Virus record (IMG/VR): IMGVR_UViG_2698536369_000014
DNA: 8,333 bases
Reading direction: 5' to 3' (one strand)
Source: a virus
Taxonomy: Duplodnaviria; Heunggongvirae; Uroviricota; Caudoviricetes
A program made the translations under genes and the position numbers. Below the pieces are notes generated by a model that saw nothing but the letters and a program-made list of their open reading frames with translations, was not told the DNA's origin and made no database searches. Of this stretch, positions 1-8,229 are shown one piece after another; the stretch's first letter is position 1, and every line of letters begins with the position of its first letter.

Positions 1-85
1 AGGTAATGGCGTTATCACGGTAATGATTAACAGCCCATGACAGGCAGACGATGATGCAGATAACCAGAGCGGAGATAATCGCGGT
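1..85 (-). pseudogene. rzpD: Rz (i-spanin) fragment beginning at about codon 5, with no start codon, fused out of frame to the endolysin fragment; continues beyond the window start
   Basis: Reverse complement of 1-85 translates to [28 protein letters not shown], which matches my recollection of lambda/DLP12 Rz residues 5-32 ([12 protein letters not shown]...). No in-frame ATG lies upstream; the frame joins the lysozyme frame offset by one base at about 85/86. Confidence 0.6.
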
Positions 86-284
86 TATACGTTTTACCGA
101 GCATGATGTCTTTTCCTGTATGCCCGTGACATACAGTCCATACACCAACAATATCTTTGTATGGTATGTAGCTGACACCCTCCAGACCATCGTTACCACT
201 TGAGCCAGTGATTAACACTGATGCTATAGCAATTGCTCCGCCACCAATAGCAGCAGCAACGGCTTTTCGTAATGATGGAGGCAT
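86..284 (-). pseudogene. rrrD: SAR endolysin (phage 21 R-type lysozyme) 5' fragment, about 66 native codons then unrelated readthrough
   Basis: [27 protein letters not shown]...[33 protein letters not shown] matches the R21 N-terminus (SAR domain and E-D-T catalytic triad region). After GKTY the frame runs into out-of-frame Rz sequence and stops at 27. ATG at 282-284 overlaps the holin stop (TAATG). Confidence 0.75.
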
Positions 285-499
285 TATTCACCTCTCGCAG
301 CCTTGCGCTTATCTTCTTTAATCTTGAAATAAAGGTTTGTCAGGTACGTCAGCAGGCCAAATACCAAGCTACCCAGCACACCTATTGCTGCCCACTGTGA
401 GGGCGTGACTTTATCGAGCAGCTGTAAAAACCAGTAGCCAGCACTGCCTGCGGAGGTGCCGTAGGCAATGCCCGTTGTTAACTTATCCATGGATTTCAT
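284..499 (-). CDS. essD: Class II pinholin, S21/EssD-like, 71 aa, with dual-start motif (Met1, Met4)
   Basis: [26 protein letters not shown]...[13 protein letters not shown] is near-identical in pattern to the phage 21 S pinholin. GGAGGTGA ribosome-binding site lies upstream of the ATG at 497-499. Confidence 0.9.
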
Positions 500-593
500 A
501 GCCTCACCTCCGCAAATAACGGATGGTGTACACGGTTCGGAACGAAGAGGAAAGGTATAGAAGTTACATTAGCGTAAGGCTTGAACATCTATT

Positions 594-626
594 CAAAAAG
601 AAAAACGCCAGCGATTATTCTGGCGT
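594..626 (-). terminator. Intrinsic terminator on the minus strand, between the AppY-like gene and the holin
   Basis: 7-bp GC-rich stem ACGCCAG (605-611) / CTGGCGT (620-626) with an 8-nt loop, followed on the minus strand by TTTTTCTTTTT (plus-strand A-run 595-604). Confidence 0.55.
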
Positions 627-687
627 AGCTGAAAGCATCATACAATTATCAAATACGAAAATTACAAAATCATTAAAACGCATCACG

Positions 688-1418
688 TTACATCATGTCT
701 TTTTCTAAAAAAAATCTTGATGAATATTGATGGGGAGGAACACCAAAATATCTTCTGAAAACACTTACAAAATATGACGTGTTTTCATAACCGCATATCT
801 CAGCAACTTTTCCAACAGAATATAAATTGTAGCTTAATAACCTTTCCGCCATCACCATTCGCTCTTCAAGAATTAACTTACTAAATGATAAGCCTTCGTG
901 CTTTAATTTTCTTTTTAACAGACTTTCACTCAGATACAGTCTTGAAGATATATCACAAAGTCTCCATGCTGCAGATATATCCGTGTGAATAATAGCCTTA
1001 ACTTTACTTCCTAAACTATTAAGACATCCAAATAAAAAACTTTGCACTATTTTCTCTGAAGATAAGATAGCAAGACATGCAAGTGATATTTGATTTCTAA
1101 CAAAATCCACAGTTCTGCCATCACAATTCAAGCATGCAATCAAGTTCTTTAACAATGAAAAATCTTCACATTCCACCATCAAGTATGCCGGATAAAACCT
1201 TCTTACAGAAAAAGATGAGAGTGTGTTGCTTTTAAAGAAATCATTAACTGTTTTCTCTTCAACATCTACGATCATTACATGATCTATATTTGATGAAAAA
1301 AATCTTTTAAATTGTAATCAATGAGAACAGCACTTCCTTTTTTAAACAAAGTATCTTCTTTACCAATTCGGACATCAAACGAGTTCAACACCAAAATGAT
1401 AGAACATATGTATGGCAT
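688..1418 (-). pseudogene. AraC/XylS-family regulator of the AppY/YdeO/GadX type, split by a frameshift: N-terminal 43-codon ORF (1287-1418) and C-terminal 195-codon ORF (688-1275)
   Basis: C-terminal ORF carries an AraC-type HTH. Upstream ORF MPYICSIILVLNSFDVRIGKEDTLFKKGSAVLIDYNLKDFFHQI* has AGGTGG ribosome-binding site and resembles the AppY N-terminus (MDYVCS..SFD....FKK). The two frames are joined by adding one base at the A7 run 1296-1302, giving ...KDFFSSNIDHVMIVDVEEK... Confidence 0.6.
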
Positions 1419-1769
1419 ATTATCCACCTGATATCATTGGGGTTACACCAGGTAAGTATAGGTGGAAAATCAATATTCGCCAGTTCAACAATAAGGAAAA
1501 TCTCATTGCATCACAAGTATAAAATTATGTATTTAACTCACAAAGACAAATTATTAAACCAATCTGTTATATTATATATAGCTGCGTGGAATCATAATAT
1601 TATATATTTTGACTGGCATGTTTACCAACTTTAAGTTGCATCTCAATGGTTTCTTCAGCGTAAACAGAGTTTTTATACAAACTGACACTCTGGGTATCAT
1701 AGTGTAGTTTTTACGATTGTAAATATCCTGCATGCAGGAACTCATCCTTTTGGATGATATCGCATACAA

Positions 1770-2729
1770 TTAATTTACCATCAGTCTTAGAGCCAGTTCG
1801 TCCGGATAGGGATCGAAGTAATTCTGTGTAAGCAAGTAATCATTAGGATACTCACCCAGATAATGCTTCAGCAGAGTCAACGGCGCAAGAAGAGGTAATG
1901 TGCCAGAACGATAGTTAAGTATAACCTCGCTCAACTCTTTACGCTGGCGTGTACTTAAGTAGTTACTAAAATACCCCTGTATATGCATCAGCACATTCGT
2001 GTGATTTTTACGTGACGCAGGTTTTCTGAGAATCGCCATCAGCTTATCACGATACACCTCAAAGTATGATTCAAGGTCCGCCCACTCGTGTATTGCAGCC
2101 ACAAATGGTCCCATATCTTTATAGCCTGCCTGACTATGCGCCAACAACTGAAGCTTATAACGACTATGAAAAGCTAATAACTCTCTTCTTGATAATTTCT
2201 CCTTGTAAAGGTGATTGAGCTCATGCAAAGCAAAAACTCTTTCAACAAAATTCTCACGAAGCACTGGATCATGTAATCGCCCATCCTCTTCAACCGGTAG
2301 CCAGGAAAACTTTTCCATCAAAGTGCTCGTAAATAGTCCCACTCCATCTTTACGACCTCGATTACCATTTTCATCATAGACACGCACGCGCTCCATGCCA
2401 CAGCTGGGAGATTTAGCACAAACCACAAACCCCGATACATCCTTTAATTTGTCCATATAAGAACGACTAAACTCTGTCATTCTCTCTGTCACATCCTCAT
2501 TCTGGTCGTGGCTGAAACACATCCGTATATTTCCTTGCGTCGAGCGCACAAGACGTAGAGCAGGACGCGGAACTGGCAGCCCTATAGCCATTTCCGGACA
2601 TACTGGTCTGAATGTTACCCATTCCACTAATTTGTCCATTAAAAAGTCAGCTCTTTTGTGACCACCATCAAAACGAACAGCAGAACCGGCCAAACAACCG
2701 CTGATTCCAATCACAGTTTTTTTTATCAT
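1770..2729 (-). CDS. TudS(DUF523)-DUF1722 fusion protein, 319 aa; putative [4Fe-4S] desulfidase of the RudS/YbgA family
   Basis: N-terminal half has Cys12 (GISGC), Cys44 (RPVCPE) and Cys104 (VVCAKSPSCG), matching the three-Cys cluster ligands of TudS. C-terminal half has YbgA/DUF1722-like motifs (LLAPLTL, YFDPYP). Strong ribosome-binding site AAGGGGGAG before the ATG at 2727-2729. Gene is AT-rich. Confidence 0.8.
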   Translation of the reverse strand: MIKKTVIGISGCLAGSAVRFDGGHKRADFLMDKLVEWVTFRPVCPEMAIGLPVPRPALRLVRSTQGNIRMCFSHDQNEDVTERMTEFSRSYMDKLKDVSGFVVCAKSPSCGMERVRVYDENGNRGRKDGVGLFTSTLMEKFSWLPVEEDGRLHDPVLRENFVERVFALHELNHLYKEKLSRRELLAFHSRYKLQLLAHSQAGYKDMGPFVAAIHEWADLESYFEVYRDKLMAILRKPASRKNHTNVLMHIQGYFSNYLSTRQRKELSEVILNYRSGTLPLLAPLTLLKHYLGEYPNDYLLTQNYFDPYPDELALRLMVN

Positions 2730-2839
2730 ATTCTCCCCCTTGACTAATTCATTAACACATAAACTGTGTAGTGCACGGAATAAATTGCCTTTCTGGCGTC
2801 ATCACTGACAATTTTTCTGTTATGGACTATTCCTAATAT

Positions 2840-2889
2840 AGTATGAAAGTTCTTTAAGTGATCGGTCGTAATCATCTATCTTTCATACT
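2840..2889. promoter_or_regulatory. 10-bp perfect inverted repeat (AGTATGAAAG ... CTTTCATACT, 30-bp spacer) in the divergent promoter region between the desulfidase-like and Blc-like genes
   Basis: Arms at 2840-2849 and 2880-2889 are exact reverse complements, 33-82 bp upstream of the Blc-like ATG. Confidence 0.25.
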
Positions 2890-2921
2890 TACTTTCAACT
2901 ATCAAAAGTACAGGATTTATT

Positions 2922-3446
2922 ATGAAGTTATGGCCTGTGTTGACTGGCATTGCACTCTCTTTCACTCTTATAGCATGTAAGGCCCCGACACCACCTAAAG
3001 GTGTGCAGCCGATTACAAATTTTGACGCCAACCGCTACCTCGGAAAATGGTATGAAATAGCTCGCCTCGAGAACCGGTTCGAACGTGGTCTGGAACAGGT
3101 CAGCGCTACTTATGGAAAACGGAACGACGGAGGGATTCGTGTACTTAACCGTGGATACGATCCAACGAAAAATAAATGGAGCGAGAGCGAAGGTAAAGCA
3201 TACTTTACTGGAGATACTAAAACTGCAGCGTTGAAGGTTTCGTTTTTTGGCCCCTTCTATGGTGGCTATAATGTAATCAAACTGGATGATGAGTATAAGT
3301 ATGCTCTTGTCAGTGGTCCGAACAGAGAATACCTATGGATTCTGGCAAGGACCCCAACTATTCCAGATAAAGTAAAAGCAGACTATGTGCGAACCGCTCA
3401 AAAGTTGGGATTCAATGTCAATGAATTATTATGGGTTAAACAATAA
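2922..3446 (+). CDS. Outer-membrane lipocalin lipoprotein, Blc-like, 174 aa
   Basis: Signal peptide with lipobox LIAC (Cys19). Motifs NFDANRYLGKWYEIARLENRFERGLE and KVSFFGPFYGGYNVI...YLWILARTPT align with E. coli Blc at roughly 55-60% identity by eye, so this looks like a diverged paralog, not chromosomal blc. Confidence 0.85.
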   Translation: MKLWPVLTGIALSFTLIACKAPTPPKGVQPITNFDANRYLGKWYEIARLENRFERGLEQVSATYGKRNDGGIRVLNRGYDPTKNKWSESEGKAYFTGDTKTAALKVSFFGPFYGGYNVIKLDDEYKYALVSGPNREYLWILARTPTIPDKVKADYVRTAQKLGFNVNELLWVKQ

Positions 3447-3472
3447 AATCCCTACCCGAAATAATACTTATT

Positions 3473-3502
3473 AGAAAAAAACCAGCCTTTGGGGAGGCTG
3501 GC
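3473..3502 (-). terminator. Intrinsic terminator on the minus strand about 100 nt downstream of Q (tR'-like)
   Basis: Stem CCAGCCT (3483-3489) / AGGCTGG (3496-3502), loop TTGGGG, followed on the minus strand by T7 (plus-strand A-run 3475-3481). No U-run on the plus strand, so it is unlikely to serve the Blc-like gene efficiently. Confidence 0.6.
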
Positions 3503-3601
3503 TAAATCAGGAAACAAGCTGTTATATGATAATAACTACGTTGCGATTCCAACATTTAAAATGTTAGACTAATGAGAATCAGACAGCAACTTTTCCTTTA
3601 A
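3503..3601 (-). promoter_or_regulatory. Putative late promoter pR' and Q-utilisation region
   Basis: Position only: between the Q stop and the tR'-like terminator, as in lambdoid phages. Candidate minus-strand hexamers TTGCTG-17 bp-TAACAT and TTGGAA-15 bp-TATCAT; not confidently assigned. Confidence 0.3.
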
Positions 3602-3979
3602 TTATTTCGAACAATCAGCATCCATCTCCAATCGGAGATCCAACACCATCAGCATACCCTCCACTACGCCCTCAGCTTTCTGGAGCATCCTGCCAACCCA
3701 ACAATCAGATCGCCCATGCTTACGTGCAAGCGCCATAAAAGTCATGCCGCCGACATAATAGTCCACCAATAAATCATGCAAATCGCTGTTGTTCTTTTTC
3801 AGACGGGCCATGCACCCGCAAATGATCATCGCGTCATCGTCACAACATTGTGGGCGAGATTTTACTTTTGAAGGAATTAATCCCTTAAAACCGGCGGCAA
3901 TGGACGACCAGGTCACATCTTCATGATTATTAGCCGCCCACGCTCCCCAACGCTCAAGACCCATCTGAATATCACGCAT
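3602..3979 (-). CDS. quuD: Late-gene antitermination protein Q (phage 82 / DLP12 QuuD type)
   Basis: [62 protein letters not shown]... is near-identical to K-12 QuuD as recalled. Start taken as the ATG at 3977-3979 (GGAG ribosome-binding site upstream), not the TTG-extended ORF ending at 3994. Confidence 0.9.
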
Positions 3980-4064
3980 CAACTTACTCCACAAAACTCA
4001 GACCAGAACGCCAATTACAAGCAAAAATCAACAAAACAGTATTAGTTGATTGTTATCTCTGACT

Positions 4065-4205
4065 TCATACTCCTGCTCCTGTCAGTGTTTTGGCGTAATT
4101 CTTCAGTATTCGGTAATCGGTCAAAACATAACCGGGGAAACGATATAAGCGCAGACGACCCCAGCGGTGGCGAAGAAGTTCTGCCATATAAAACTCAAAC
4201 ATCAT
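4065..4205 (-). CDS. ylcG: Small DLP12 protein YlcG, 46 aa
   Basis: Not in the ORF track. Minus-strand translation [46 protein letters not shown]; its ATG overlaps the rusA stop (ATGA), matching K-12 gene order rusA-ylcG-quuD. Confidence 0.6.
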
Positions 4206-4564
4206 TCATTCCCCATTTCGGTGATGGTCAGTTCCAGCCTCCCACCTTTGGTAACGGGCATCTTCACAACGCGGTAATCAACGACCTGAGCATCATCCAG
4301 CCATAAACCTGCTTTGGTGAGTGCGTCAAAAGCGGCTTTTTGCAGATTATCCAGGTCACGGCGACGGCGATCCGGCATGTGGCACTCAATACGGATTTTC
4401 ACTGGCATAGCTAGGCCGATATCCAGCATTGCGTTTTTAATGATTCGGGTGACGTTATCGCGGTATGCCTGCCCCTCTGCGCTGACGTGCGTGCGCCCGC
4501 GATTATGGCGGTAATAGCGATTATTGCTCGGAGGCCAGGGTAATGTGATACTGTAGGTATTCAC
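4202..4564 (-). CDS. rusA: Holliday junction resolvase RusA, 120 aa
   Basis: [37 protein letters not shown]...[34 protein letters not shown]... is essentially K-12 RusA with the acidic catalytic motifs intact. GTG start overlaps the ybcO stop (GTGA). Confidence 0.93.
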
Positions 4565-4851
4565 GCCTTAATAACCCCCTCTTTCAGCCAGATAACCTGT
4601 GTTCTCGCCATACCTTCCAGCGCGCATTCTTTTGCATATGCAGCATCGACAAAATGTGTGCGGCGGTCGATTTCGTCGTGGCAGGCAGAACATGCAATGG
4701 TGGCAATCAGGTCTGGCGGTTTGATACCGGTACCGCACAATCCAGCCAGCCGGATATGTGCCAGTACAGACGTTTCAGAATTGCCATTACATACGCCAGG
4801 GATTCTTACCTGGCATTCCCGACCACGCGCTGCTTTTCTCAAATCAGCCAT
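4561..4851 (-). CDS. ybcO: YbcO (DUF1364) putative phage nuclease, 96 aa
   Basis: [23 protein letters not shown]...[11 protein letters not shown]... matches K-12 YbcO. Start taken at the internal ATG 4849-4851 with GGAGGA ribosome-binding site; the track ORF extends 13 codons further upstream. Confidence 0.85.
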
Positions 4852-5014
4852 GATTCCTCCTTGCTGCCAGTCGCAACCATTTTTTATCAACTAGGCTAGC
4901 GGTATATCCGAGCAGTGTTGGTATTTCGGATGGCTTCAGCTCAGGCTTACGCTTACGACGATTTGATACTCTGTAGATGTGTCCGTTCATGACACGAATA
5001 AGCGGTGTAGCCAT
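4844..5014 (-). CDS. ninE: NinE-like small protein, 56 aa
   Basis: Not in the ORF track. Minus-strand [56 protein letters not shown], with GGAGG ribosome-binding site. Start overlaps the ybcN stop (TAATG) and the 3' end overlaps the ybcO start by 8 nt. Confidence 0.6.
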   Translation of the reverse strand: MATPLIRVMNGHIYRVSNRRKRKPELKPSEIPTLLGYTASLVDKKWLRLAARRNHG

Positions 5015-5469
5015 TACGCCTCCTGCTTGTCACGGAGCTGCTGGAACTCGCAGCTCTGCGGAATAGTCAGATGGCAACCAATATTCATCGCCCAGGCTTC
5101 AACCTTACACAGGAAGACATACATCTCTCCGGTATCAAGATCGGAGGTATGGCGTAACGACTGGATAGTGGTGATATCACCGGTTACGACATCAACCAGG
5201 TCTTTGGTTTCATAACCGAGATATGTGTGTTTGAGAGCATCTTTTACCCAAGCTGGAGTGGCGAACGTTTTACCCCTGCTGATGAGGTATTCACTGATTT
5301 CGCTGTACCACATGTGGCTGAGTGCATTCTGGGAAAGACTGCGTTTCTCACGCCACGGTTTAAGCACCATGCGAAAGCATTTGCCCTCCTCCAGATAAGG
5401 CTGGATCTGCCGACCGATAGCGGTGAAGTTGCCGCGATGTAATTTGATGCCGTCTTGTGAGAGGTTCAC
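5014..5469 (-). CDS. ybcN: YbcN, DLP12 nin-region protein, 151 aa
   Basis: [62 protein letters not shown]... matches K-12 YbcN. GTG start at 5467-5469 preceded by GGAGGTG. Confidence 0.85.
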
Positions 5470-5567
5470 GCTTCACCTCCGCAGAGGTCAAACGCTAGAT
5501 GCAAAGAATTGCAGGTGCATTTCTGCATCTGTGAAGGGAGAAGAGAGTTTGGATTGTATGTGCGCAT
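5466..5567 (-). CDS. ylcH: Small ORF, 33 aa, at the position of K-12 ylcH
   Basis: Not in the ORF track. [33 protein letters not shown]; stop overlaps the ybcN GTG (GTGA) and a GGGGA ribosome-binding site candidate lies upstream. Assigned by size and synteny only; I do not recall the YlcH sequence. Confidence 0.4.
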
Positions 5568-5590
5568 AAACGTCCCCGTTTAGCGCAGAA

Positions 5591-5619
5591 GTCACCGGAG
5601 TTGTTCAGGCTCCGGTGAC
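5591..5619 (-). other. Perfect 10-bp-stem hairpin (GTCACCGGAG / CTCCGGTGAC, 9-nt loop) between ybcM and ylcH
   Basis: Exact inverted repeat read directly from the sequence. It lies 65 nt downstream of the ybcM stop and about 24 nt upstream of the ylcH start. The downstream minus-strand sequence is only partly U-rich (TTCTGCGCT). Confidence 0.3.
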
Positions 5620-5683
5620 ATAATTATGCCGTGTTGATTTCCCAAAATCAAAATCGATAGAATTGCTCCTTCTTAAAACACTT

Positions 5684-6481
5684 TTACTCTCTGGAAGCTT
5701 TTCTTATCTCTCTTGGTGTTATATTAAAACGATTATGAAATCTTTCAGTAAAACGAGAAGGACACTTATAACCATTTTCTCTGGCAATCTCGCTTATAGG
5801 TTTTACCGTCGTTTGTATAGCAGACAACGCATTATTTAACCTCACATCGTCCAGTATACTTTGGAAACTTACCCCCTCGCTTGCTAGACGGCGATGTAAT
5901 GTAGAAACAGAAATGTAGAGATATCGAGCAACCTTGTTTGCTGTCCATTTTGTGCCGGGTTCGGATAGCAGCAGGTTATAACAACGACTTATCAATGATT
6001 GTTTACTATATGATAAAAGTAAATGATTAACATGATTCACTCCTAACGAAAGTAGAACGCCCATTGCTAAGTGCTCCTGAATTTTAGTTGAGAAGCCTCG
6101 GGAAACAGATGTTTTTAGTTGCTCCCAACAATATATTAACTCAGGATTCTGAGGTAAAAAGAAACTTGTTTTGTTACGTATTTGATCAGTTACCGTATAA
6201 AGTTTTTGGAAACTCTCAATTAAATCAATGGGTAAGTAAAGCATTTCTGCAAGATAAAGCCCTGCTTCAGGATAATTCTCAATATAAAATTCATAACCAC
6301 AAGGAAATAATATTATTTGATTATTATCAACAGTTAAAGTATGCGTCTCCCAATTGATAACTTTCTTTCCCTGACGGATACGACACAAAGCTGGCATAAG
6401 AGGCTTAACCCTATGAATCTCATGATGTTTATGCATCCGTATTTCTTCGATCTTTAAGTTAGTCTTACCTCTTGCCAGCAT
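5684..6481 (-). CDS. ybcM: AraC-family transcriptional regulator YbcM, 265 aa
   Basis: C-terminal AraC HTH ([38 protein letters not shown]...) and synteny ybcL-ybcM-ylcH as in K-12 DLP12. ATG at 6479-6481 lies 9 nt after the ybcL stop, suggesting an operon. Confidence 0.8.
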
Positions 6482-6490
6482 ACTCTCACC

Positions 6491-7042
6491 CTACTTTATC
6501 TCATAAACTGGTGTTATCTCAGCGGTTGCGATTTTATTAGCATTAAGCATATAACCAACTAACGCTCCGCTGGAGTTAGAATCTACAGGAATCTTTTCAG
6601 TTTTTAGAGCCCATACTTTAAACTGGTAATGATGTGGTTTATCTCCTTTAGGAGGACATGCGCCACCAAACCCAGCATAGCCAAAATCATTTCGGCCTTG
6701 AACAGCACCAGTCGGCAGTTTTGTTCCATCACGTCTCCCTGCATCAACGGGCAAATATGTTACTGTTGCTGGAATATTAACAACAGTCCAATGCCACCAA
6801 CCACTGCCTGTAGGTGCATCTGGATCATATACAGTTACGGCAAAGCTTTTGGTACCTTCAGGAACACCAGACCAGGTTAATGAGGGCGATGTATTACCAC
6901 CTTCACACCCAAATCCAGAAAAGACATGAGACGTTGTAAGTTGCTCTCCTGTTTTTATTTCATTACTAGTGACCTGAAATGCTGCAACCTGCGCAGAAAA
7001 TGTTATGAATGCCAATACAGTTGAAACGATAAGTGTTTTCAT
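6491..7042 (-). CDS. ybcL: Periplasmic PEBP/RKIP-family protein YbcL, 183 aa
   Basis: Signal peptide MKTLIVSTVLAFITFSAQVAA, then ...VYDPDAPTGSGWWHWTVVNIP...GFGGACPPKGDKPHHYQFKVWAL..., typical of the YbhB/YbcL family. Ribosome-binding site AAGAGG. Confidence 0.85.
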   Translation of the reverse strand: MKTLIVSTVLAFITFSAQVAAFQVTSNEIKTGEQLTTSHVFSGFGCEGGNTSPSLTWSGVPEGTKSFAVTVYDPDAPTGSGWWHWTVVNIPATVTYLPVDAGRRDGTKLPTGAVQGRNDFGYAGFGGACPPKGDKPHHYQFKVWALKTEKIPVDSNSSGALVGYMLNANKIATAEITPVYEIK

Positions 7043-7258
7043 AAAAACCTCTTTGTTATGACCTATCGTTATTTTATTTGATATTCCTTTATCTCATTAT
7101 GCATAAAGGCGCAATGTTCATGCAAAAGCAATCACAATTGTACCCCCAACCCAATTATTTGCCACAATATACACAAAGCACATTGATACTATCTAAAAAC
7201 TATGCTTTATTATTAGTAATACCTACGAAAGTCGGTGTTATTTTTTAAACTACCATTC

Positions 7259-7309
7259 AAAATACGTGACATACACCATTTTGCTCATAATAATTTGTCA
7301 CGTATTTTC
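7259..7309. promoter_or_regulatory. 13-bp perfect inverted repeat (AAAATACGTGACA ... TGTCACGTATTTT) about 215-270 bp upstream of ybcL
   Basis: Arms at about 7259-7271 and 7297-7309 are exact reverse complements separated by 25 bp, in an AT-rich intergenic region. Function unknown (operator-like or structural). Confidence 0.25.
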
Positions 7310-7506
7310 AGTATTTGAATCTGCGACCAAGAGTTCTCACCTAACAAATGATTAAGATTGTATAGCTCATTTACTACCCCAATACAGCCGTACAAAACTC
7401 GCTTGTGGGAGCAAACAAAGTAATTACCCATTAAGTTTCGTTAAAGATAATTAATTCTGTCTTGCACTTTATCATCATAGCATAACTTAAAATCCGAGAT
7501 CATTAT

Positions 7507-8229
7507 TTAGAAATAAATCTCACCATCAACCATATATTTGAGAGCACTTATCGCCTGCTGGGCGGATATTACTTTCATTAAAAGATAGTGTTTAAAAACA
7601 ATGCCATTCATAAAATAGATGTCACAGGTTTTATTATCCGTATTAATTATGATTTTTTCGAATGTTTTATAGGCAAGTGTACGGCATAACTCTCGTCCAT
7701 TTTTACTGGTTAAGTCAATAGCATAAAAATCACTGAATGAATTTACACCTTTACTCTTCAAAGTTTTCAATGATACCGAAGCCCTTCGTAATTCCTTATC
7801 TAATAGTCTTATTTTCTCTGCTATAGCGGTAACTTCAGGCGCGACAGACAATGCAACGATTAAATTATTAATTTTCATCTGAAGCTCAATAATTTTTAAC
7901 TCTAAAGTTTCATTAGCATCTTTCTTGTTTTCAACTGGTTGAATTTTGCTACAATTAAAAAGCAATTCATTAATGATATTATAATCAACCAAATCTCTTT
8001 TTATTGATGGCCTGTCACATCGATGTAATCTTCTCATCGGACAAACATAATAGCCATGCAAACTTCCAGATACCGCATGAACAATCATGGTATTACCACA
8101 AGCCTCACACTTCATAACTGTTCGAAGTAGATTTATTAGCATAGGATTCTTGCTACTATTGCTAATACCAAAAGGTGCCAACCGAATTTCCTGTACAGCG
8201 TAAAACAAATCATCTGATATGACTCTGGG
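7507..8229 (-). pseudogene. ybcK: Large serine recombinase (YbcK-like) 3' portion, 5'-truncated by the IS2-like insertion
   Basis: About 240 aa with a zinc-ribbon-like motif (CEACGNTM...YYVCPMRRLHRCD) and a coiled-coil segment, typical of the C-terminal half of large serine recombinases. No catalytic N-terminal domain. The track ORF start (GTG at 8254-8256) and first 9 codons lie inside the IS terminal repeat, with TGA and TAA immediately upstream in frame. Confidence 0.7.

Follow-up and report, generated by a model that had tools for sequence, protein, structure and literature searches.

Gene content and boundaries of the cargo segment

The subject of this report is an 8,333-nucleotide stretch of the IMG/VR virus record IMGVR_UViG_2698536369_000014 (Caudoviricetes), here called the window and always meant at its full length, and in particular the cargo that it carries between the antiterminator gene Q and the holin gene. 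The window is a defective DLP12-type lambdoid prophage of Escherichia coli with its late genes on the minus strand. Compared with the DLP12 prophage of strain K-12, homology is confined to positions 86-510 and 3620-8229, and the segment between them, 511-3619, has been exchanged (breakpoints 510/511 and 3619/3620) and takes the place of K-12 nmpC. It holds a gene for a Blc-type lipocalin (blc), a gene for a predicted tRNA 4-thiouridine (s4U) desulfidase (rudS) and a frameshifted gene for an AraC-type regulator, and is probably a composite lysogenic-conversion (moron) cassette made of two units. A first-pass annotation, made from the sequence alone, had read the segment as accessory cargo that a lambdoid prophage of this type carries between Q and S, more precisely between Q/tR' and the holin and in the nmpC position, and the breaks in K-12 homology bear this out; the exchanged segment is slightly wider than the 594-3502 first marked.

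The gene identities suggested at that stage (Blc-like, TudS-DUF1722 and AppY-like) are likewise supported by Pfam and NCBIfam profiles and by alignment with AppY, and at the sequence level these assignments leave no ambiguity; the regulator frameshift had been missed. The guanine-cytosine (GC) content of the island is 38.1%, compared with 48-50% for Q and the nin genes, so that its composition is distinct from that of its flanks, as expected of a moron. The three genes had been described as all visibly AT-rich, which holds for the AraC-type gene (31.7% GC) and the intergenic regions (33-39%), but the effect is uneven and is much smaller in rudS (43.4%) and blc (44.0%). As K-12 DLP12 carries nmpC between the same Q and holin genes, and versions of the site with the AraC-type gene alone are known, the cargo also shows the presence/absence pattern of a moron.

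The desulfidase and lipocalin genes

The s4U8 nucleoside of tRNA is a near-ultraviolet (near-UV) chromophore, and its crosslinking stalls translation. An intact gene for a TudS (DUF523)-DUF1722 fusion protein of 319 amino acids (aa) lies at 1770-2729 on the minus strand; among the genes that late transcription would read in sense after tR', it comes first. Both domains are recognised by Pfam, PF04463 (2-thiour_desulf/TudS) at residues 7-149 (3.1e-40) and PF08349 (DUF1722) at residues 192-309 (1.9e-40). Such fusions were named RudS in 2024, when removal of 4-thiouridine from tRNA was shown (Jamontas et al., NAR 2024, PMC11417400), and RudS has been presented as the first bacterial tRNA s4U "eraser" (PMC11417400). 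The cysteines of the [4Fe-4S] cluster are all there (Cys12, Cys44 and Cys110), with the same numbering as in RudS_vir and RudS_ST (Table 1 of PMC11417400). Furthermore, Glu46, Arg55, Ser107 and Ser109 correspond to Glu51, Arg60, Ser111 and Ser113 of RudS_KT when assigned by their offset from the cluster cysteines (Glu at Cys+2, Arg at Cys+11, Ser at Cys-3 and Cys-1) and not by structural alignment; the Glu, the Arg and the two Ser are essential in RudS_KT (PMC11417400). The window protein is 93.1% identical, with a dN/dS of 0.11, to RudS_vir (gp66 of phage 1H12), one of the six enzymes assayed, which lowers tRNA s4U on overexpression (PMC11417400). As such, the window RudS is predicted to be a [4Fe-4S] desulfidase that converts s4U8 back to uridine. 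Overexpression of RudS in E. coli has also been reported to shorten the growth delay induced by UVA (PMC11417400).

Divergently from rudS, and thus antisense to late transcription, blc (2922-3446, plus strand) encodes an outer-membrane lipocalin lipoprotein of 174 aa (Pfam Lipocalin_2, PF08212, 7e-44). The protein scores 316 bits against the NCBIfam model of the Blc subfamily (NF007786; cut-off 267) and has a lipoprotein signal, MKLWPVLTGIALSFTLIAC, with the lipobox LIAC at residues 16-19. Identity is about 80% with the lipocalin that adjoins rudS in Enterobacter and Citrobacter, compared with 60% for K-12 Blc. Blc of E. coli is an outer-membrane protein that binds lysophospholipids, and the same lysophospholipid-binding type of lipocalin is predicted for the window.

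The AraC-type regulator gene

The third gene (688-1419, minus strand) is a frameshifted pseudogene in the window and belongs by sequence to the PatE/AppY/YdeO type of the AraC family (HTH_18, 6e-15; HTH_AraC). Its intact allele in strain CE10 encodes 243 aa, and the window copy is split into open reading frames (ORFs) of 47 and 195 aa, the downstream one at 688-1275. Alignment with CE10 places the lesion, a 1-nucleotide (nt) deletion, in the homopolymer tract at 1296-1302, which is T7 in the window and T8 in the in-frame allele. The protein has a C-terminal double helix-turn-helix and full-length similarity to the PatE/AppY/YdeO group: identity is 31% with AppY over 237 aa (E 3e-42) and 54% over 235 aa with ECs_0287 of the Sakai prophage Sp1, which by synteny (Sp1 = OI-8 at thrW) is probably PatE (Z0321). 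The best-matching profile is the NCBIfam equivalog model of YdeO, yet the score of 126.8 bits against a cut-off of 348 does not support YdeO orthology.

The regulator family is nearly restricted to E. coli. In other prophages, relatives of 64% and 56% identity are the sole cargo between a Q gene of another family (PF03589 or PF06323) and a holin gene of the same family, and homology with the AraC-only prophages begins just about 18 nt before the start codon. AraC-only loci occupy 6001-7134 of locus L156 and 5045-6907 of locus L153. The family thus looks like a passenger that recurs at one place, the end of the Q-S interval next to the holin. Because its relatives sit alone at this site, its terminator is shared with them and its GC content is 31.7% as against 43-44% for blc and rudS, the AraC-type gene with its own terminator would be a separate moron and not part of one module with blc and rudS. 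PatE, Psr and AppY are prophage-encoded AraC regulators (PMC10877973, PMC10057817), and PatE, PsrB and AppY activate gadE/hdeAB acid resistance. By analogy, the product of an intact allele would most likely act on acid-stress genes of the host and not on its neighbours.

The length of the tract is variable. Among loci with the window's allele it is T8 in 45, T7 in 7, T6 in 2 and T9 in 1; 232 complete E. coli genomes match the T7 form exactly and 240 the T8 form. The out-of-frame alleles (T6, T7 and T9) arose at least four times independently on the background of single-nucleotide polymorphisms in the module, and in the other two allele groups the tract is interrupted. Two explanations fit the tract, a mutational hot spot where selection is relaxed or negative and a phase-variable switch; decay of the regulator is plausible for the window copy.

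Distribution in E. coli genomes and phages

The 3.1-kb segment was found in 1156 of 5426 complete E. coli genomes (21%), with at least 80% of its length in 992 of them. The copies are nearly all chromosomal and fall into three main allele groups, of about 99%, 94% and 89% identity. Between alleles (dS about 0.2-0.35), the ratio of nonsynonymous to synonymous substitution (dN/dS) is 0.11 for rudS, 0.07 (range 0.06-0.1) for blc and 0.27 for the AraC-type gene, and these values therefore indicate past purifying selection. Twelve phage genomes carry the segment, namely IdasGreatGrand, 1H12 and the Lambda_ev series; 1H12 and the Lambda_ev phages are cultured temperate coliphages of the infant gut (PMC6969025), and plaque-forming infant-gut lambdas are thus among the carriers (PMC6969025).

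The order Q, blc (antisense), rudS, AraC-type gene where present, holin was kept in all 86 contexts, comprising six annotated ones (CE10, phage 1H12, REL606 and strains 2D, MS20675 and EC361) and 80 of 80 IMG/VR loci, judged for the latter as far as each contig reaches; the genes thus travel together, and in these contexts between Q and the holin. Beyond Q and S the modules vary, with rusA-ylcG or DUF968-rem-hokD upstream and rrrD or ydfR-rrrQ downstream, and Q, cargo and S therefore move as a single mosaic block. In REL606 an insertion sequence (IS), IS3, lies within rudS, in EC361 IS1 replaces the AraC-type gene, and the BL21-type strain NEBExpress retains solely blc and the 5' end of rudS. 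Positions noted for such IS elements are 7192-8354 of locus L004 and 4245-4942 of locus L007.

It has been claimed that E. coli lacks RudS and TudS homologues (PMC11417400). This holds for K-12 and fails for the 1156 genomes above; the B strains REL606 and NEBExpress carry disrupted rudS copies. Two short contigs (L060 and L065) of a metagenome-assembled genome labelled 'Candidatus Nanosynbacter sp.' (D148_maxbin.008) also contain Q, blc, rudS, the AraC-type gene and the holin at 94-100% protein identity, and this cassette is almost certainly E. coli contamination of the bin.

Chromosomal relatives and origin of the blc-rudS pair

The nearest RudS proteins outside E. coli (66-76% identity) are chromosomally encoded, in Citrobacter, Enterobacter, Leclercia, Kluyvera, Klebsiella, Pectobacterium and relatives, and no Q, holin or AraC-type neighbours were found at these rudS loci. 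In 43 of 62 loci, rudS is preceded by a divergent gene for a Blc homologue of about 80% identity; the spacer measures 188 base pairs (bp) in C. sedlakii compared with 192 bp in the window. Loci of the Enterobacter type read blc, then in the other direction an MlrA-like MerR regulator, a transthyretin-like protein and rudS. Those of the Citrobacter braakii type comprise MlrA-like MerR, SnoaL, SDR, amine oxidase, DUF1365, CFA-synthase-like, DUF2878, DUF3833 and rudS, and two loci join a divergent blc to the long cluster. The cluster was located at 1167-8960 of locus L008 and 6021-8960 of locus L031, and also in L057 and L058, with rudS as its last gene. Taken together, the ancestral order would have been blc, divergent from MlrA-like MerR - SDR - amine oxidase - DUF1365 - CFA-synthase-like - DUF2878 - DUF3833 - rudS.

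The phage pair accordingly looks like a shortened version of a chromosomal stress locus, where a tRNA eraser and a lipid-binding or lipid-modifying set would stand under a shared control region, and the phage copy appears to have lost the gene for the MlrA-type regulator. Alignment of the blc-rudS intergenic regions of phage and Citrobacter gave no nucleotide homology. The most economical account has an AraC moron in place first and blc-rudS then inserted between it and pR'-tR'. In Salmonella, the MerR-type regulators MlrB and MlrA repress orf319, the gene for RudS_ST. The inverted repeat AAAATTG-N21-CAATTTA, which precedes the rudS start codon by 86 nt in the window, as read by eye, and in the allele of strain 2D, was considered as a candidate MlrA/MlrB-type operator of phage rudS and dropped, since it is degraded in the 1H12 allele and unlike the TTGGACA...TGTGTAA motif conserved at Enterobacter loci.

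Terminators, promoter-like sites and transcription

In lambdoid phages, a late promoter and a strong terminator lie close behind Q, within about 150 nt. From this late-operon architecture, pR' is expected at 3540-3630 on the minus strand, where a scan gave the weak candidate TGGAGA-18-AATAAT at 3630-3601 and inspection by eye gave TTGCTG (3589-3584)-17-TAACAT (3566-3561), with 7 of 12 positions matching the consensus. The region is kept in four diverged module alleles and differs from that of K-12 DLP12. About 100 nt beyond the Q stop codon lies an intrinsic terminator (3473-3503, minus strand), with a 9-bp stem (3503-3480) and a T7 run. Its fold of -19.1 kcal/mol (z = -4.45) was equalled by none of 200 shuffles, compared with a z of just -1.48 on the plus strand; on that strand the hairpin stands 34 nt past the blc stop codon and the U-run after it is absent. 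The stem is invariant across four diverged module alleles. These features fit tR', the gate of the late operon, and not an insulator around the cargo.

The second hairpin, an intrinsic terminator assigned to the AraC-type moron (594-626, minus strand; 7-bp stem 626-605, then a T-run), is 62 nt past the AraC-type stop codon and about 95 nt before the holin start. It folds at -12.1 kcal/mol (z = -1.7) and is kept in all module alleles and in the AraC-only prophage L156. Both minus-strand terminators that had been noticed at first are therefore present and conserved, although two minus-strand hits in the terminator scan are not above the number given by shuffles (3.2 +/- 1.6). Insulation of the cargo from the late operon, as then proposed, is expected in the uninduced lysogen, but the upstream hairpin belongs to the late operon itself; a Q21-family antiterminator is expected to read through both hairpins, and therefore insulation would be confined to the uninduced state.

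Promoter-like sites, whose number is at chance level, include 1723-1696, 1628-1599 and 2898-2871. The first two, matching at 10 of 12 positions each and oriented toward the AraC-type gene, are the best of the island and lie in the spacer before that gene (1420-1769, minus strand, 32.6% GC). The third points toward rudS from the divergent blc/rudS control region (2730-2921; 192 bp, 33% GC), which is conserved between phage alleles and has a strong Shine-Dalgarno sequence (AGGGGGAG) ahead of rudS. With the promoters and the Q read-through that we infer for the cassette, pR' transcripts in the lysogen would halt at tR' (3503-3473). Expression of the cargo would then depend on promoters within the cassette, and its transcripts would be stopped short of the holin gene by the terminator at 626-594. 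After induction, Q-modified polymerase would pass both terminators and continue to the lysis genes, reading rudS and the regulator gene as sense and blc as antisense, a situation like that of stx in Stx phages.

Flanking prophage genes

The gene order in the window is ybcK, ybcL, ybcM, ybcN, ninE, ybcO, rusA, ylcG, Q, cargo, holin essD and a truncated rrrD. The quuD-like Q gene (3602-3979, minus strand) encodes 125 aa from its ATG, in an ORF that reaches a TTG at 3994 (Pfam Phage_antitermQ, 4.8e-50), and matches the Q21 structures 6P18/6JNX distantly (E 1.6e-8), which makes it a distant member of the Q21 family. Homology with K-12 quuD stops at 3620, so that the last six or so codons of Q (from 3619 down) lie inside the exchanged segment. 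At the other end, K-12 homology restarts at 510, 11 nt upstream of the start of essD (284-499, minus strand), the first lysis gene, which encodes a class II (P21-type) holin (Pfam Phage_holin_2_1, 2e-35).

The lysozyme gene rrrD (27-284, minus strand) is truncated to 85 aa, as judged from its ORF and from comparison with K-12 and CE10. A deletion of about 305 bp relative to CE10, with its junction at 86/87 and a 2-bp overlap, takes the 3' two-thirds of rrrD and the first codons of rzpD, and with RrrD cut to 85 aa this prophage copy is therefore unable to lyse its host. Within the window the regulator and the lysozyme are inactivated, and of the genes concerned blc and rudS alone are intact.

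A second AT-rich cargo pair (38.8% GC), ybcM and ybcL, lies in the early region at 5684-7042 and is common to K-12 DLP12; ybcM encodes an AraC-type regulator just 22% identical to that of the island, and ybcL a PEBP/RKIP-like periplasmic protein. A search of the whole window for known RNA families and for tRNAs, such as those of Stx phages, found none, the sole match being sub-threshold and on the tR' hairpin.

Function of the cassette and alternative explanations

The reading that we hold to be probable is that 511-3619 is a composite moron cassette in the Q-holin interval of a DLP12-type prophage. Its first unit would be blc and rudS in their divergent arrangement, taken over from a locus on an enterobacterial chromosome at which both genes are adjacent; the second would be an AraC activator of the PatE/AppY/YdeO type, AT-rich and equipped with promoter-like sites and a terminator of its own. 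The host would gain an eraser of s4U in tRNA and, beside its own Blc, another lipocalin of that type, a set suited to near-UV or photo-oxidative and envelope stress, and where intact the AraC-type gene would add a regulator of the acid-stress type. The first-pass annotation had suggested a membrane/tRNA stress cassette. That idea fits the chromosomal relatives, with their blc, lipid-modification and rudS genes, but not as one module, since the AraC-type gene appears independent.

Several points weigh against the composite stress cassette. The physiological benefit that we infer from it includes near-UV protection, which is not an obvious advantage for a gut bacterium. RudS_vir was the less active of the assayed enzymes despite good solubility, the tests relied on overexpression (PMC11417400), and deletion of orf319 in Salmonella left intramacrophage survival unaltered. 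The cassette is often damaged: IS1, IS2, IS3 or IS911 lies inside it in about a quarter of spread-sampled genomes, and the regulator is frameshifted in 232 of the 534 genomes with the window's allele, as it is in the window, which argues that the regulator at least is dispensable. A single acquisition is probably behind all copies, so their constant orientation is not independent evidence for expression from the late transcript. Moreover, the promoter-like sites occur at chance frequency (14, compared with 11.2 +/- 3.2 in shuffles), and the scan and the inspection by eye give different, weak candidates for the exact position of pR'.

The main rival reading has a different beneficiary, although we regard it as unlikely: RudS may chiefly serve the phage. 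Bulk synthesis after induction, which is often UV-driven, would erase the s4U of host tRNA, and crosslinked tRNA and the stringent response would then not stall late-protein synthesis. The co-orientation of rudS with the late operon, as the first sense ORF after tR' and in the position of stx in Stx phages, agrees with this, as do a Q of the Q21 family, the retention of the cassette in plaque-forming phages and the shortened UVA growth delay on RudS overexpression (PMC11417400). However, blc would be antisense in the induced state, a single capture event may have fixed the orientation by chance, and low dN/dS in long-defective DLP12-type prophages fits a benefit to the host. The specific proposal that RudS is an auxiliary lytic-growth gene, switched on by Q after UV induction and stripping s4U8 against crosslink arrest and the stringent response, is more tentative still. 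If it were true, a tRNA-modification eraser would for the first time be seen deployed by a phage, and the s4U levels and UVA responses of E. coli strains would vary with their prophage content.

It is doubtful that the three genes form one regulatory module in which the AraC-type protein is dedicated to blc and rudS and replaces a MerR/MlrA-type regulator. Chromosomal loci do have an MlrA-like gene beside rudS, Salmonella MlrB represses orf319, the phage cassette has an AraC-type gene instead of the MlrA-like one, and the three genes occur together in most copies. Nevertheless, homologues of the regulator occupy the same site unaccompanied by blc or rudS, base composition and terminator both set it apart as a unit of its own, it is frameshifted or deleted in many genomes with intact blc and rudS, and its characterised relatives target acid-resistance promoters of the host. 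That the segment is decaying junk in a cryptic prophage, with no current function, is improbable as a whole. The truncated lysozyme and frameshifted regulator of the window, the common IS insertions and the disrupted REL606 and BL21 copies would suit it. Against this, rudS and blc are intact in the window with all RudS catalytic residues kept, dN/dS is 0.07-0.13 across diverged alleles, the segment occurs in viable phages, and the orthologue RudS_vir is enzymatically active; on dN/dS, intact residues and retention in viable phages, pure decay of blc and rudS is unlikely. An ordinary conserved chromosomal locus unrelated to prophages is what blc-rudS represents in Enterobacter, Citrobacter, Leclercia and others, but for E. 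coli the context survey rules this out: all 86 contexts lie between Q and the holin of a lambdoid prophage and K-12 is without the segment, which makes such an explanation scarcely credible here.

Relation to earlier work and implications

The combination of genes had not been recognised as a described module. As a unit the cassette was indeed not found in the literature searched, but its parts have each been published: the blc moron, RudS_vir and PatE-type regulators are already described, and the Q-to-S interval is a classic cargo site. On the three genes as one module, the literature search found only the remark on the blc moron; the cassette as a unit, the chromosomal origin of blc-rudS, the prevalence in E. 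coli and the recurrent frameshift were not found in it. About one fifth of complete E. coli genomes carry an intact or near-intact prophage rudS, at the site where Stx phages have their toxin genes, in what is otherwise a typical moron cassette of known components. Prophage-borne RudS makes strain differences in s4U, UVA growth delay and the stringent response testable, and with them the question of host or phage benefit. In addition, RudS is linked by the comparative data to a lipid-modification cluster under MerR control and to a lipocalin of the Blc type, which provides a lead to the physiological setting of the enzyme.

Comparison with known systems

The closest known counterpart of the window RudS is RudS_vir (1H12 gp66), which shares the domain fusion, the length of 319 aa, the cysteines and the Glu, Arg and two Ser residues, and in phage 1H12 the Q-blc-rudS-AraC-holin arrangement is identical to that of the window. 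The study of RudS (PMC11417400) dealt with the isolated enzyme and did not discuss its phage context, whereas here it is a gene of a prophage cassette. The mlrB (orf242)-orf319 (RudS_ST) locus of Salmonella SPI-2 encodes an enzyme of the same family and length. Unlike this and other enterobacterial rudS loci, the phage copy is without an MlrA-type regulator, has an unalignable upstream region and sits in a late operon.

As for the lipocalin, Mathieu et al. (2020, PMC6969025) listed a 'blc' moron for more than 50% of the lambda phages of the infant gut, and this is the same gene as the window blc. The ampC-linked, outer-membrane Blc of E. coli shares the Blc model and the lipoprotein signal with the window protein, which is a paralogue. 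The likeness of the regulator to PatE, PsrA/PsrB, AppY and YdeO consists in full-length similarity, and it is likewise prophage-borne and AT-rich; the positions of appY and patE differ from its own, directly upstream of the holin, and the window gene is orthologous to none of these. Finally, stx in Stx phages and nmpC in DLP12 occupy the same site as the cassette, downstream of pR'-tR' and upstream of the holin, and show the same mosaic presence and absence. Their cargo is a toxin or a porin, whereas the payload of the cassette would be a tRNA de-modification enzyme, a lipocalin and a regulator.

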